DNA from: a bacterium
GTDB lineage: Bacteria; Electryoneota; Electryoneia; Electryoneales; Electryoneaceae
Reading direction: 5' to 3'
Length of the DNA: 64,000 nucleotides
Assembly: GCA_963669175.1 (NCBI GenBank)
Contig: OY769902.1
Location: forward strand, 288,001-352,000
Shown piece by piece: positions 55,292-59,859 of this stretch. Each line of letters begins with the position of its first letter. Positions within the stretch are counted from its first letter, which is position 1. Under the pieces are notes generated by a model, which ran no database searches, was not told the origin of the DNA, and saw nothing but the letters and a program-made list of their open reading frames with translations. The position numbers were made by a program, and so were the translations under genes.

Positions 55292-55870
55292 ATGCGAATT
55301 CTAGCCTGTGATGACGACCATTTAATGCGTACGATTGTTGCGGATTGGCTAACGAACCTGGGACATGAAGTTGTTACTGCGGAAGATGGTTTACGTGCAT
55401 GGGTCCGTTACAATGAGGAACACTATCCTGTAATTATTTCCGACGTGATGATGCCCAACATGAACGGCTATGAACTCTGCAAAAAGGTTCGCGCCGCCAA
55501 CCATGAAAAATACACCTACATCATTGTCCTGACCGCCCTTGAAGGAAAAGACAGCTACCTGAAAGCACTGCATGCCGGGGCGGATGACTTCATCAACAAA
55601 CCCTTCGATGAAGCTATCCTGGAAGCACGTCTTGAAGTCGCCCAGCGTATCCTGAAATTACAGACTACAGTAAAACAGCTTGAGGGACTGCTGCCCGTCT
55701 GCTCTTACTGCAAACGCATCCGTAAAGACGATGAAGAGCATAACCACACCGAATGGGTTGCGATTGATTCGTATATCCAGGAAAAGGCGAATGTGGACTT
55801 TTCGCACGGCGTCTGCCCGGATTGTTACAACGCGATCATCCGTCCGCAGTTGGGGGACGAGGACGACTGA
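55292..55870 (+). CDS. response regulator receiver with C-terminal CxxC...CxxC domain
   Basis: DDD, SDVMMP, KPF; CSYCKRIR...SHGVCPDC. Confidence 0.9.
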   Translation: MRILACDDDHLMRTIVADWLTNLGHEVVTAEDGLRAWVRYNEEHYPVIISDVMMPNMNGYELCKKVRAANHEKYTYIIVLTALEGKDSYLKALHAGADDFINKPFDEAILEARLEVAQRILKLQTTVKQLEGLLPVCSYCKRIRKDDEEHNHTEWVAIDSYIQEKANVDFSHGVCPDCYNAIIRPQLGDEDD

Positions 55871-56034
55871 TTGAATCCGGAACGTATCTGTATTTGAAGC
55901 AAACCGCAGTGCATTGTTTCACACCCCGGCTTCGCGAGTGCTGAAATTCATTCGACCGTTTGGCTTGACTGCTTGCTGTCGGGTTTCAATCCGCGGCCAG
56001 ACTACTCCCATTGTCACAACGAGATGTTACCACG

Positions 56035-56246
56035 AAAAGGGGACGGGATCCTTTTCCCCGCTTATTTGCCGAACACTCTCGCTGACCTTGCGGAAAAGGA
56101 AACTGTACCCTTTTCGCAGTGACAAAACCTTATCACAGGAAACAGAATAGAGCGTTGTACTTCTTCACAGGCAAAAGGGAACAGCCACCTTTTCAATTCA
56201 CCGCATCACACAGTATTGCATCGCTTCACAACGAAAAGGAAACTGT
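56035..56246. repeat. REP-like element C (inverted copy), fourth palindrome split by IS110
   Basis: Palindromes at 56035, 56094, 56173, 56234; remainder at 57720-57732. Confidence 0.85.
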
Positions 56247-56356
56247 TATAATGCATAAGTAGAAGCAGCCAACCTCGACGCAGCACACATGTCGGGCTAA
56301 CTTGTGTTAAAGGCGTAACACGAGGTTACCCGTAGTACTTACACGAGGAGGTTGGC

Positions 56357-57403
56357 ATGCAGGCAGTATACTACATCGGTCTGGACGTACACAAGAAGAA
56401 GATTGCGTATTGTATTCAAACGTCGGCAGGTAAGATAGTTGACCAGGGCATGGTTGCATCCACCCGTCCTGCTCTTTCAAACTGGGTTGCGAAGTTACCG
56501 ACTCCCTGGGCGGCGGCGATGGAAGCGACGTTGTTTACAGGCTGGATTTATGATTTTCTGAAGCCGCATGCATCGGCACTGAAGGTGGCACACCCGGCGA
56601 TGCTGAAGGCGATTACGGCGGCGAAGAAAAAGAATGACAAGGATGACGCCAAACGTATCGCAGATCTGCTCCGTATCGACCTGTTGCCGGAATGTTACAT
56701 GGCACCATCAGATATCCGTGAGCTACGCCGTGTGCTGCGATTTCGCAACAAAATCGTCCGGCATGCCGTGAGCCTGAAGAACAAGACGGCCGGATTACTG
56801 ATGGAAGTGGGCGCTGAGTATTCGAAAAGGCGTCTACATGGCAAACGCTACTTCCATGAATTGCTCATTGAACTTGATACGCTGGATGAGATTCCGACCA
56901 CTGTGGTTGAGATGTTGCGAATGAATCGTGCCGGCCTTGAGCTGTTTGAGACGCTGCAACTTCAACTGGTTAAGGCGCTGGCTACGCATTCGCTGTTGGC
57001 AGATCGGGTGAAGTTGTTGATGACGATCCGTGGCATTGGTGTGATGACCGCGCTGACATGGGCGTTGGAAGTGGGTGAAGTGGAACGGTTTGCCAGTATT
57101 TCCAAGGCAATCAGTTACTGCGGTTTGTGTAGTGCGCAGCAGGAATCAGCGGGAAAAACGAAACGGGGACCGTTGTCCAAGAAACGAAACAAACATTTGC
57201 AGACGAAACTGATCGAAGCGGCGAAGCTGGCGCCACAGTGGCATCCAGAGCTGCAGATTGTGCATGACCGTGAACTGGCACGCAGCAATCCCAACCGGGC
57301 AACATTAGCGGTAGCACGAAAGCTGGTAGCTTATCTGATGGCGGTTGATCGACGGGGAACGCCGTTTGTTCAAGCCGACACGACAACAGAACTTGTAAAC
57401 TAA
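56357..57403 (+). CDS. IS110-family DEDD recombinase/transposase
   Basis: IGLDVHK, MEAT, KNDKDDA (DEDD); IRGIG; ESAGK serine motif. Confidence 0.95.
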   Translation: MQAVYYIGLDVHKKKIAYCIQTSAGKIVDQGMVASTRPALSNWVAKLPTPWAAAMEATLFTGWIYDFLKPHASALKVAHPAMLKAITAAKKKNDKDDAKRIADLLRIDLLPECYMAPSDIRELRRVLRFRNKIVRHAVSLKNKTAGLLMEVGAEYSKRRLHGKRYFHELLIELDTLDEIPTTVVEMLRMNRAGLELFETLQLQLVKALATHSLLADRVKLLMTIRGIGVMTALTWALEVGEVERFASISKAISYCGLCSAQQESAGKTKRGPLSKKRNKHLQTKLIEAAKLAPQWHPELQIVHDRELARSNPNRATLAVARKLVAYLMAVDRRGTPFVQADTTTELVN

Positions 57404-57429
57404 CATTCTATGCCACAACGCGTATTGTA

Positions 57430-57600
57430 AACCGGACCTGCCCGCCAGGCCTCACGAAACAGGGGACTATGCTTCGGGCATCCTTGAAACTGTTTAGAGG
57501 CTGGTCGGGTGATCCCTAACTTCATCTTCTGTGACGGGCCATATGGCCCCGAGACAGACCATGAATGTCTGGCCGTAAGGTCTGTTGGCGGCCCACGCGA
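57430..57600 (+). ncRNA. putative bridge/seek RNA of the IS110 element (boundaries approximate)
   Basis: Stem-enclosed loop with AGGGGAC and GAAACTGT matching both halves of the target; TAAC and CATGAATGT matching the donor junction. Confidence 0.75.
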
Positions 57601-57831
57601 GAGCGAGCAAAGGTCAGGAAAAACGCGTTGAGGAAGAGGTTAGGCATCGTCCTGGTTCAGAGATGAATCAAAGGACTCGGGAAAACTCCGTCTTCCCCTT
57701 GACTCTACTTATCATGAAAGTCCCCTTTTGCTGCCAATATTGGCTCGAGAGCGTAGCGATCTACAAGAATTTCCGGCTTTCGAGCATGCTTCCACCTTGC
57801 GAGATCGTCCTTTCCGCGCCTATTCTGTAAC

Positions 57832-59859
57832 ATGACACGGAAAACGGGACGATCCATCTTACCGGCTTTGATTCAGACCCATCCCGCCTGGGTTCTCTTC
57901 GGGATTGCTTTGTTGCTCCGCATCGTCCAGCTCGTTTTCGTATATCGCCAACCCGGTTTCGATCTTCCGATTGTTGATGAAGTCCATTTTGACATCATGG
58001 CCCGCAACCTCGCGGACGGCACTACGATGCATGACGGTCCCTTCTTCCGTCCGCCGCTCTGGTCCATCCTGCTTGCCGGCCCCTACAAACTATTTGGTCA
58101 GCATTTCTTTCTGGCGAGGTTCCTGAACACCATTCTTGGTTCGCTTGCGGTAACGGCTTCCTTTCGCCTTGGCAAACGTCTGTTTCATCAGCGTGTCGCC
58201 TTTACCGGTGCATTGATCTTTGCCTGCCAGGGGTTCTTCATCCATAACAGCACAACCGGGCTGGCTTCCACCCTGCTGGTCTATCTCAGCCTGGAAGCGT
58301 TGCAGGTTACGTTGTATGCTCGCAATCAAAATCGCCTTCGATACTGGCTTATTGCCGGACTACTGTGGGGACTTGCTGCCATAGCCAAACCGGTCGTGCT
58401 GGTGCCGGTGGTTGTCATTCTCTGTGATACCTTGTTCCGTAAAACAGCAACCGCCGGGTATCGTCAAAAAACGGCCGCGCTGTTTGTGCTTGGGCTGTTG
58501 TTGCCCATTATGCCTGTGACCCTGCGAAACTCGATTTCCGGCGATGCCGTCCTGGTATCTTCCAATGGCGGAATAAATTTGTATATGGGCAACAACGAAC
58601 AGGCGAATGGCGTCATCGTGTTTCATCCTGTCCTTGGCGTGGGCTGGACCGAGACCAATGCGCACTCGTGGGCGGAATCGGAAACCGGATACATGATGAG
58701 TCCGTCCGAAGCTTCATCGTGGTACACACAACAGGCGGTGCAGTTCTGGTTCTATCAGCCCAAACGTGCCTTCAAGCTGATACTGGATAAAGCCTATTAC
58801 ACATTCTCCGGGTTGATCTTCACCAACAATGGGAATCTCGGCTTTTACGCAAAGAGCAATCTTCTTTTACGGTCACTGCTTCCCCTGGGTTGGGGCGCTG
58901 TTTTCCCATTCGCATTGGTCGGCATGGTTCTCGCCTTCCGCAGGTCCGGCAATCATCGCTTGACGATGCTGGTAGCTTTCAGTTACCTGGGAATCTGTAT
59001 TCTCTTTTTTGTGCTGGCCCGTTTCCGGCTTCCAGCGGAAGGTATCCTGGTTCATTTCGCGGCATACACCGGGTGGTTCCTGCTGGGGCGCGAAGAAGTA
59101 ACTCAACAGGCTTCCGGAAAAATTCGCCTGCTGATATCGCTGGTTGTTGTTCTCCTGGCTTTGCCGGTGAATATGAACCTGAAGGGGATGAGCCGTTCCA
59201 TTGATTATGCTCACAGTTATTACCTGAATGGTCAGCTCCTGGCTCGTGAACACCGTTACTCGGAAGCGGCCCAGGCATTTCGTGACGCTATCGCACTGAA
59301 TAAGCGTATCCCACTCAGCTACCTGTATCTCGGGCAGGTTATGATGAAAATGGACAGCACAGAGCAGGCCATAAATTATTTCAAGCATGAAATCGCCACC
59401 TTGCCGAAAACCCAGTATTTCTCTGACCTGGTACTAAATGCTCAAGCCAATCTTGGACGCGCGTATATGAAGGTCGGCGATAAAGCGGAAGCGGAGCGAA
59501 CTTTCCGGGAGGCGCGTCAAATCTATGGTGGTGATCCCGGGGTAAATAAATACCTTACCAGTCTCATACTGGAGCGTACACGTGAAAAGCTAGTGCAAGA
59601 CGACTGGAACACAGCGCTTGAGAACCTTGAAGAAGCTGCCACTATCAACCCAAATGAACCGGCGCTTGCGTTTGCTTTTGCGGTAGCACGGTTCCATACC
59701 GGAAGCCCTGAGCACGCGAACCACATTATGGCTATCATCCTGAAGCATCACCCGGATTACTCGCCAGCTCAACGATGGCGGGATCAGGAGTGGCGCCCCG
59801 ACAGCCATGATATCCAGGAGCTGTTGCTCCCCTTCCTGGATGATGGCGAAAAAAAGTGA
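57832..59859 (+). CDS. GT39/ArnT/PMT-like membrane glycosyltransferase with C-terminal TPRs
   Basis: IVDE..F, FRPPL, NGGINLYMGNN, ARFRLP; TPR tail. Confidence 0.8.
   Translation: MTRKTGRSILPALIQTHPAWVLFGIALLLRIVQLVFVYRQPGFDLPIVDEVHFDIMARNLADGTTMHDGPFFRPPLWSILLAGPYKLFGQHFFLARFLNTILGSLAVTASFRLGKRLFHQRVAFTGALIFACQGFFIHNSTTGLASTLLVYLSLEALQVTLYARNQNRLRYWLIAGLLWGLAAIAKPVVLVPVVVILCDTLFRKTATAGYRQKTAALFVLGLLLPIMPVTLRNSISGDAVLVSSNGGINLYMGNNEQANGVIVFHPVLGVGWTETNAHSWAESETGYMMSPSEASSWYTQQAVQFWFYQPKRAFKLILDKAYYTFSGLIFTNNGNLGFYAKSNLLLRSLLPLGWGAVFPFALVGMVLAFRRSGNHRLTMLVAFSYLGICILFFVLARFRLPAEGILVHFAAYTGWFLLGREEVTQQASGKIRLLISLVVVLLALPVNMNLKGMSRSIDYAHSYYLNGQLLAREHRYSEAAQAFRDAIALNKRIPLSYLYLGQVMMKMDSTEQAINYFKHEIATLPKTQYFSDLVLNAQANLGRAYMKVGDKAEAERTFREARQIYGGDPGVNKYLTSLILERTREKLVQDDWNTALENLEEAATINPNEPALAFAFAVARFHTGSPEHANHIMAIILKHHPDYSPAQRWRDQEWRPDSHDIQELLLPFLDDGEKK

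Follow-up and report, generated by a model that had tools for sequence, protein, structure and literature searches.

Near the right-hand end of the 64,000-nt stretch of bacterial DNA analysed here (the window: positions 288,001 to 352,000 of contig OY769902.1, assembly GCA_963669175.1, from a member of the Electryoneaceae) lies an insertion sequence (IS) of 1475 bp, at 56247–57721 with its right-hand GT included. This element is very probably an IS1111-type member of the IS110 family whose 3′ end encodes, within a putative plus-strand transcript, a guide RNA of the seekRNA or bridge RNA kind. The case is built from matches between the RNA and both halves of the host repeat that the element interrupts, from the way in which the guides for the target and for the right end of the element change with the DNA that they read in related elements, and from a conserved RNA fold. 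An initial annotation of the window had proposed an IS1111-type RNA-guided recombinase with its RNA 3′ of the gene, a GT/AC core, and a host repeat as target; covariation among homologs supports that proposal, and direct reading of the window places every segment that it named at the positions it gave.

The boundaries of the element are set by a second full copy, 100% identical, in the same 5.45-Mb genome. The insertion site consists of the following parts.

56247..57721, plus strand: insertion sequence, its ends defined by the two identical full copies and kept in 80 + 80 related loci
56245..56246, plus strand: core dinucleotide GT of the left junction; GT is found at the left junction in nearly all homologous loci
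56234..56244, plus strand: left target half AAAAGGAAACT of the interrupted host repeat, with an identical left flank at the second copy
57722..57729, plus strand: right target half CCCCTTTT of the interrupted host repeat, by direct reading

The GT core is present at both junctions of both full copies. In the window, the left junction reads ...AAAAGGAAACT-GT/TATAATGC (GT at 56245–56246) and the right junction reads ...CATGAAA-GT/CCCCTTTT (GT at 57720–57721); in both copies, GT lies directly left of TATAATGCATAAG..., and the terminus is ...CTTATCATGAAA-GT. The flanks are AAAAGGAAACT and CCCCTTTTGC at the window copy versus AAAAGGAAACT and CCCATTTTTCG at the second copy. Insertion is sequence- and orientation-specific, with both copies in the same repeat type and in the same orientation, and it leaves a short shared core and no long target duplication. 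Removal of the element gives AAAAGGAAACT-GT-CCCCTTTT. The initial annotation held that removal restores the target, and the genome bears this out: the uninterrupted 12-mer GAAACTGTCCCC occurs 84 times, as compared with 0.65 occurrences expected from composition. Its context is nearly always GGAAAAGG or GGGAAAGG ... CCCCTTTT(T)CC, with GAAAAG or GGAAAG before it at 74 of the 84 sites and TTTTTCCA or TTTTCCGT after it at 63. The host target (GGAAAAGGAAACTGTCCCCTTTTCC) is a palindrome like the repetitive extragenic palindromes (REPs), and the element is inserted in its loop, GGAAACT-GT-CCCCTTTT. The perfect variant of the target, with its 84 copies, falls mainly into two subtypes, ...CCCCTTTTTCCA with 34 copies and ...CCCCTTTTCCGT with 29. 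The REP-like family as a whole, AAAAGG-N7-9-CCTTTT, is spread genome-wide and has three diverged units just upstream of the element (56036–56195).

The segments that would read this target lie in the non-coding region 3′ of the recombinase gene.

57441..57453, plus strand: 5′ strand of the outer stem, CCCGCCAGGCCTC, of the target-binding loop; pairs with 57497–57509
57454..57467, plus strand: 5′ target guide ACGAAACAGGGGAC, which complements the top strand of core and right flank
57469..57481, plus strand: inner hairpin ATGC-TTCGG-GCAT between the two target guides, from folding and from compensatory change in homologs
57486..57493, plus strand: 3′ target guide GAAACTGT, equal to left flank plus core, which complements the bottom strand
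57497..57509, plus strand: 3′ strand of the outer stem, GAGGCTGGTCGGG; pairs with 57441–57453

The exact part of the 5′ target guide is AGGGGAC (57461–57467), the complement of top-strand GTCCCCT. Read position by position over its full length, this guide matches 10 of 14 nt at the window copy (copy 1) and 11 of 14 at the second copy (copy 2); against the repeat subtype ...CCCCTTTTCCGT it matches 12 of 14, by eye. The 3′ target guide is made up of the last 6 nt of the left target half and the core. Both guide-bearing segments (57454–57467 and 57482–57496) lie within the outer stem, read opposite strands, and overlap at the core, as in a bridge or seek loop. The complement of the top strand lies 5′ of the complement of the bottom strand, which is the IS1111 order: PMC11187229 describes this arrangement, with overlap at the core, for IS1111-type seekRNAs. 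When the 3′ non-coding region was shuffled 20000 times with its dinucleotides preserved, both target matches arose jointly in 6 shuffles. A match was counted from 8 nt upwards for the left flank with the core and from 7 nt upwards for the reverse complement of the core with the right flank, position and structure being unconstrained; the 7-nt match alone arose in 807 shuffles. Single-sequence folding predicts the outer stem (−32.3 kcal/mol and z = −2.88 for a 78-nt piece; z = −2.49 for the whole 3′ end).

Two sets of relatives carry the comparison. The first holds 80 loci, one genome per species, at 59–67% amino acid identity and mostly from metagenome-assembled genomes (MAGs) of Desulfobulbales, Geobacterales, Syntrophales, and similar groups; the second holds 80 metagenome loci and is more diverse than the first. 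Homolog ends were set by motif anchors with fixed offsets, and a few rows are mis-set (e.g. L043, L085, and L139). The ends of the relatives are conserved (GT/TTGAATGCATAAGTA ... CTTATCATGGAT-GT), and 3′ of the gene all share a common scaffold: TTCCCGCCGGNCCT, a 14-nt loop ending in GAC, a hairpin, a loop ending in xxGT, and TTCGAGGCCGGCGGGTT. The loop sequences vary among elements, each matching the flanks of its own element. Both junctions and the loop could be located in 53 loci, counting the window and the second copy. Scored over 8 nt beyond the core in these, the 5′ guide averages 6.09 against the reverse complement of its cognate right flank and 4.86 against non-cognate ones, and the 3′ guide averages 5.57 and 3.28 against cognate and non-cognate left flanks; the summed score was reached by 0 of 5000 permutations. 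Many of the targets are GT-CCCC repeats that resemble one another, which raises the non-cognate background. Since copies of one element are not independent, the set was reduced to distinct guide pairs. The 41 such pairs score 11.66 of 16 versus 8.34 when permuted, and the 28 that differ by at least 4 of 16 nt score 11.86 versus 8.28; 0 of 10000 permutations reached either value, although the loci are kin and such counts overstate their independence. The homolog alignment that the initial annotation had suggested as a check thus shows guides that vary with the flanks and with the target, within a scaffold that is kept with compensatory changes. Poor matches exist, as in L026, L031, and L056, where the 5′ guide fits at 3 of 8 positions; these are presumably off-target insertions or loci with mis-set ends.

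The core dinucleotide also varies naturally in the subfamily, between GT, GG, GA, and GC. An element in a genome of the host's own family (L087/L090, genome G009) has GG at both junctions and target guides ending in CC and GG, its TGGTCGGGCC being the reverse complement of GG-CCCGACCA. Right junctions with GA (L007 and L083) or GC (L065) go with 5′ guides ending in TC or GC, respectively, while the left junction stays GT. AT is seen at the right junction in three further loci (L114, L115, and L144).

Conservation of the fold was assessed on an alignment of the window with 21 loci. Among 51 right ends that had both anchors, 24 were non-identical and at most 300 nt long; the 21 used exclude two near-duplicates of L060/L062 (L061 and L070) and one end with an internal deletion (L066). 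A 48-pair structure is 93.6% paired across the 22 sequences, with 18 pairs changed on both sides, and 0 of 500 shuffles scored as high on any of four measures. Pairing falls to 38–56% when the 3′ partners are slid by 1–3 columns. The outer stem is 99.3% paired in homologs, with 6 of its 13 pairs compensatory, and 3 of the 4 pairs of the inner hairpin are compensatory as well. The stems have a column identity of 0.92–0.93, as compared with 0.55 and 0.68 for the distal parts of the two guides, a contrast that, read from the alignment, is the signature of a programmable loop. G-U pairs are frequent (e.g. UG at pair 112/206 in 10 of 22 sequences), and they fit the plus strand only, which is the strand of the gene.

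Downstream of the target module, the fold opens into a multi-branched region with segments that would read the ends of the element itself.

57519..57526, plus strand: ACTTCATC, candidate 5′ donor guide, the homolog of ACTCAATC of relatives; overlaps TAAC (57517–57520) by 2 nt
57529..57557, plus strand: hairpin A (CTGT...GGGCC-ATAT-GGCCC...ACAG), between the donor-side segments; pairs 117/144 and 119/142 compensatory
57560..57568, plus strand: 3′ donor guide CATGAATGT, an 8/9 match to the right end CATGAAAGT, in the single-stranded linker between hairpins A and B
57570..57594, plus strand: hairpin B (TGGCCG...CGGCCA), directly 3′ of the donor guide; 97.1% paired, with 2 pairs changed on both sides
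57713..57721, plus strand: right donor end CATGAAA plus core GT, by direct reading in both copies

Within hairpin A, GGGCC-ATAT-GGCCC occupies 57536–57549. A possible long-range helix that would close the donor region is strong in the window alone (57515–57529 with 57630–57644); its homolog in relatives (columns 109–115 with 203–209) is 85% paired with one compensatory pair. RNAalifold favoured a local 4-bp ATCT/GGAT pairing over this closing helix, and the window breaks that local pairing.

The match of CATGAATGT to the donor end, another proposal of the initial annotation, is backed by covariation with right-end variants. At its position, relatives carry AATGGATGT or CATGGATGT, the sequence of their own right end, CATGGAT-GT. 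All GT-core loci with the right end CATGGAT, 44 in the first set and 30 in the second, have ATGGAT in the RNA, and all loci with CATAGAT (5 and 4, respectively) have ATAGAT. In the second set, CATGGAA goes with GGAA in 3 of 3 loci; CATGGAG goes with GGAG in 3 of 4 and CATGAAT with GAAT in 1 of 1. The GG-core element combines the right end CATGAAT-GG with RNA AATGAATGG (GAATGG). The RNA of the window element is of the CATGAAT-GT type, and its DNA end has A rather than T at position −3 in both copies. From this pattern we take CATGAATGT to be the true right-end donor guide, with one mismatch. The same combination of A in the right-end base that adjoins the core (57719 in the window) and U in the RNA recurs in L062, L063, and L076, and copies of one element within a single genome differ at this position, L061 having T and L062 and L063 having A. 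In the target loop, GGGGAC is followed by a U, which after strand exchange could pair with the −3 A. By analogy with the handshake guides of IS621, the recurrent −3 A and this U might belong to a control of directionality.

One relative, L068, ends at the internal site that encodes its donor guide, AAATGGATGT, about 169 nt after the recombinase stop codon. The sequence beyond this end, CCCCGGAAT..., matches the 5′ target guide of the same element at 11 of 11 positions, and L068 is the only such case among the first-set loci scanned (L006–L085). Guide-coding DNA apparently served there as an alternative right end.

The left end is a different matter. The initial annotation had put forward TAAC (57517–57520) as the left-end donor guide; the motif is present, at the level of a chance 4-mer, and does not covary with the left end. 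Its equivalent in most relatives is CAAAC. The T of TAAC varies between A, T, C, and G among elements that share the left end TTGAAT, most elements with the left end TAGAAT still have A there, and the GG-core element keeps a segment ending in AC. Because this base varies independently of the left end and the GG-core element keeps AC, we reject TAAC as a guide, and CAAAC is rejected on the same evidence. The left-end reader is more likely ACTTCATC, to judge from its homologs. In most relatives the equivalent segment is ACTCAATC, directly 5′ of hairpin A, which matches the reverse complement of GT-TTGAAT at 6 of 8 positions. Compared with left-end position 3 in all loci in which both were found, this segment shows G-C in 114 of 114 loci, A-U in 5 of 5, and T-U in 5 of 7, counts that come from related loci and are not independent events. 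It ends in CC in the GG-core element and, in 7 of 10 elements with TTGGAT, in AC, a perfect core. Left-end position 2 has no compensation, and most relatives carry a constant mismatch, UC opposite the core. RNA reading of the left end is plausible for the subfamily on these comparisons, and it appears weak for the window element.

Taken together, these parts suggest the following course of events, modelled on relatives in the family. The element would be transcribed through the gene into its 3′ end, and the RNA would then be processed and bound by the recombinase. The target loop would hold GGAAACT-GT-CCCCTTTT, with the 5′ guide pairing to the top strand and the 3′ guide to the bottom strand. 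In the multi-branched module, the linker CATGAATGT would read the right end and core, and 57519–57526 would probably read the left end, weakly, such that the donor segments might hold the right-end/GT/left-end junction of an excised circle. By analogy with ISEc11 and IS621, the complex of recombinase and RNA would bring the circle junction to the repeat, and strands would be exchanged at GT.

Several observations weigh against this reading, in addition to the kinship of the loci compared. RNA production, processing, and recombinase binding, like the strand-exchange chemistry, are carried over from the family by analogy. The sequencing runs found for this sequence are 2 contig-level runs, both from a single study, with no RNA run among them. 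In single-sequence folding of the 3′ end, which the initial annotation had also suggested, the outer stem forms as proposed, and the two target guides pair with one another in the parts nearest the core. In homologs this pairing is kept only as 4 invariant pairs at the core, and in the window folds it arises because the target is a palindrome, but it may also be the state adopted in vivo. A search of 55800–58000 against Rfam 15 gave no match at E ≤1; Rfam may or may not include a model for IS1111-type guide RNAs. Only 2 full copies of the element are found for 84 free target sites. On the donor side, three first-set loci with the right end CATGGAA retain GGAT in the RNA, and single loci break the match (CAAGGAT; right-junction cores GA, GC, and AT while the RNA keeps GT). 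In the window element itself, the right-end guide has its one mismatch at −3 (U in the RNA, A in the DNA), TAAC is by itself a bare 4-mer expected by chance, and ACTTCATC matches the TATAAT-type left end at only 4 of 8 positions. For ISEc11, an 82-nt RNA with target matches alone sufficed for movement, according to PMC11187229, and the donor module may therefore not be essential.

These points bear differently on the alternatives. That the target matches are due to chance or to a captured piece of host repeat with no guide function is scarcely credible. The repeat is abundant and its halves are partly self-complementary, so look-alike matches are possible, and the 7-nt match alone is common enough in shuffled sequence; yet each of the two matches reads a different strand, the division between them falls precisely at the core, they flank a hairpin inside a conserved stem, and they rarely arise jointly in the same shuffles. 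Homologs with other targets, moreover, carry different guides at the same positions, and these match their own flanks. We also consider it improbable that the element is decaying, with a guide RNA real in origin whose donor guides no longer match the ends and whose competence is partly lost. The −3 mismatch of the right-end guide, the 4/8 match of the left-end candidate to a left end changed to TATAAT, and a tally of 2 full copies and 3 truncated left-end fragments against the 84 free sites would all agree with decay. Against it, the two full copies are 100% identical in different sites, which points to recent movement of the element in its present form; in addition, the gene has an intact reading frame, and both recombinase domains score well. 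L062, L063, and L076, which carry the same −3 A opposite RNA U, include two that are multicopy in one genome.

A target-only seekRNA, in which just the segment at about 57436–57512 guides, the recombinase reads the ends through the subterminal repeats, and CATGAATGT is a pseudo-end or relic, is likewise unlikely. The sufficiency of the 82-nt ISEc11 RNA for transposition, the high conservation of the inverted repeats (column identity 0.96), and the weak left-end guide speak for it. CATGAATGT, on the other hand, keeps a fixed single-stranded position between two conserved hairpins, and its equivalents follow five right-end variants (GGAT, AGAT, GGAA, GGAG, and GAAT) as well as a changed core; such tracking of the true end is not what one would expect from a relic. 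L068 bears on both sides: its use of AAATGGATGT means that the internal site can act as an end at the DNA level, but it also indicates that 8–9 nt without an inverted repeat are enough for an end, as RNA reading would explain more readily than reading of the repeat by the protein. It is possible, if doubtful, that the guide RNA of this subfamily is asymmetric, having two long, evolving target guides, one matched right-end guide, and a short, mismatched left-end reader, with the left end read mainly by the protein and the subterminal repeat. If so, use of the internal site as right end in the manner of L068 would be a predictable side reaction.

The rest of the element agrees with its assignment.

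56251..56263, plus strand: left subterminal inverted repeat ATGCATAAGTAGA, by direct reading against 57704–57715; kept in homologs
57704..57715, plus strand: right subterminal inverted repeat TCTACTTATCAT, by direct reading; kept in homologs
56357..57403, plus strand: recombinase gene, 348 amino acids (PF01548, PF02371, and NF033542)

The inverted repeats match at 12 of 13 positions with one extra base, begin 4–6 nt from the element ends, and fall within the 7–17 bp of subterminal repeats in IS110/IS1111 elements. The non-coding ends measure 110 nt on the left, upstream of the gene, versus 318 nt on the right, downstream of it. Subterminal inverted repeats, a short left and a long right end, and a protein of 330–350 amino acids make up IS1111-type anatomy as described in PMC11187229 and PMC11208160. 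The element belongs to the IS110 family and, within it, to the IS1111 group, the latter being a grouping by anatomy. The recombinase has an N-terminal DEDD (RuvC-like) domain (PF01548, E 2.6e-20, residues 7–150) and the C-terminal domain PF02371 (E 7.5e-17), and it scores 176.7 bits against NF033542, "IS110 family RNA-guided transposase" (cut-off 140). It is distantly similar to the ISCro4 and IS621 transposase structures (E about 1e-6); the conserved Ser of the G..P....S(G) motif aligns (...QQESAG... here and ...RYESGS... in ISCro4) and is followed here by Ala (ESAG). Between the left end and the gene, GCCAACCTC (56268–56276) is, by eye, the exact complement of GAGGTTGGC (56348–56356), a segment that includes the ribosome-binding site before ATG, and relatives have GGAAACCTCC ... 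GGAGGTTTCC at the equivalent places. This suggests a conserved pairing by which the ribosome-binding site could be masked.

Joining of the ends would also create a promoter of consensus type.

56247..56252, plus strand: TATAAT, start of the left end, by direct reading; putative −10 box of a junction promoter and of a TGnTATAAT promoter in the integrated state
57699..57704, plus strand: TTGACT, putative −35 box, by direct reading; TTGAC kept in aligned homologs

TTGACT lies 17 nt from the element end, and a circle junction would give TTGACT-N17-TATAAT; junction promoters are known in the IS110 family (PMC12288879). The integrated state has a promoter-like TTCACA-16-TATAAT at 56225–56252, an 11/12 match with TG upstream (TGnTATAAT). 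Left flanks end in T before GT, and TGnTATAAT would therefore form at every insertion of the element. Relatives have the weaker TTGAAT in place of TATAAT. Two metagenome contigs of about 1.64 kb (L133 and L141) have 127-nt terminal direct overlaps and contain a head-to-tail junction of right end, GT, and left end. Their assembly as circles of about 1.5 kb would fit related elements present either as circular intermediates or as tandem copies.

The same genome also holds three truncated left-end fragments, L003, L004, and L005 (C1, at about 1628745, 2995185, and 4172435). L003 and L004 are 100% identical to the element and share about 100 nt of repeat-rich upstream flank. In L004, the break lies inside the gene and is joined at a shared GTCC to the right half of the host repeat; a recombinase product and a microhomology deletion were considered and look alike here. 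L005 is 91% identical and begins with GATAAT, not TATAAT. Among 80 other genomes searched in the host lineage, only 2 have a match at E ≤1e-60 (a partial match at 71% in the first, two copies at 61% in the second), and none of these 80 genomes holds a close sister element by which changes at the element ends could be dated. This sporadic distribution, together with closest relatives in Desulfobulbales, Geobacterales, and Syntrophales MAGs, suggests horizontal acquisition.

The element reveals no new kind of system: the kind is known, and the NCBI model already names the recombinase an RNA-guided transposase. Bridge RNAs or seekRNAs were predicted in 93% of IS1111 elements in 2024 (PMC11208160). 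Compared by description, the closest likeness is with the seekRNA elements ISEc11, ISPa11, ISKpn4, and ISPst6 of PMC11187229, which have recombinases of about 340–350 amino acids with DEDD and PF02371 domains, subterminal inverted repeats, and a long non-coding region downstream of the gene. As described there, they also have two short target matches that overlap at the insertion point in the same guide order, show natural retargeting among relatives via changes in the guide loops alone, and in some cases likewise target repeated host or mobile-element sequences. They differ in that PMC11187229 gives target matches only and leaves the role of the long RNA open, whereas a right-end donor guide 3′ of the target module is supported here, and in that the ESAG of our recombinase takes the place of the usual SG or TG.

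IS621, as described in PMC11208160 and PMC13626964, shares an RNA-guided DEDD/Ser recombinase, a two-module RNA for target and donor, one guide per strand around a 2-nt core in each module (with a candidate only for the left end here), insertion in a repetitive extragenic palindrome, and a circle-junction promoter (a putative feature here). By the description in PMC11208160, its RNA lies 5′ of the gene rather than 3′, with the guide order reversed, its core is CT rather than GT, and its donor loop is a simple internal loop, in contrast to the multi-branched linker region found here. The protein similarity to IS621 is remote (E about 4e-6 over the C-terminal domain). ISPpu9 and ISPpu10 of Pseudomonas putida, described in PMC12288879, also target a REP, with a dinucleotide common to end and target, and form circular intermediates, with a junction promoter in ISPpu10 and a native promoter in ISPpu9. 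They belong to another clade and have other ends, and the additional small RNAs of ISPpu9, Asr9 and Ssr9, have no visible counterpart here.

What may be new lies in the detail: comparisons among relatives that favour a right-end guide within the multi-loop region, a left-end reader that matches weakly, and a core that varies in nature. The element is a natural example of RNA-guided site choice with a legible target and 84 unoccupied sites in the same genome. For bridge or seek engineering, the element and its relatives give comparative rules for IS1111, the less studied branch: where the four reading segments lie, at which positions mismatches are tolerated, and how a pseudo-end is used. For genome annotation, it means that reading the 3′ end of an element of this type can predict where it inserts. 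Across about 160 related loci, the guides, the core dinucleotide, and the right-end guide have been reprogrammed in nature.

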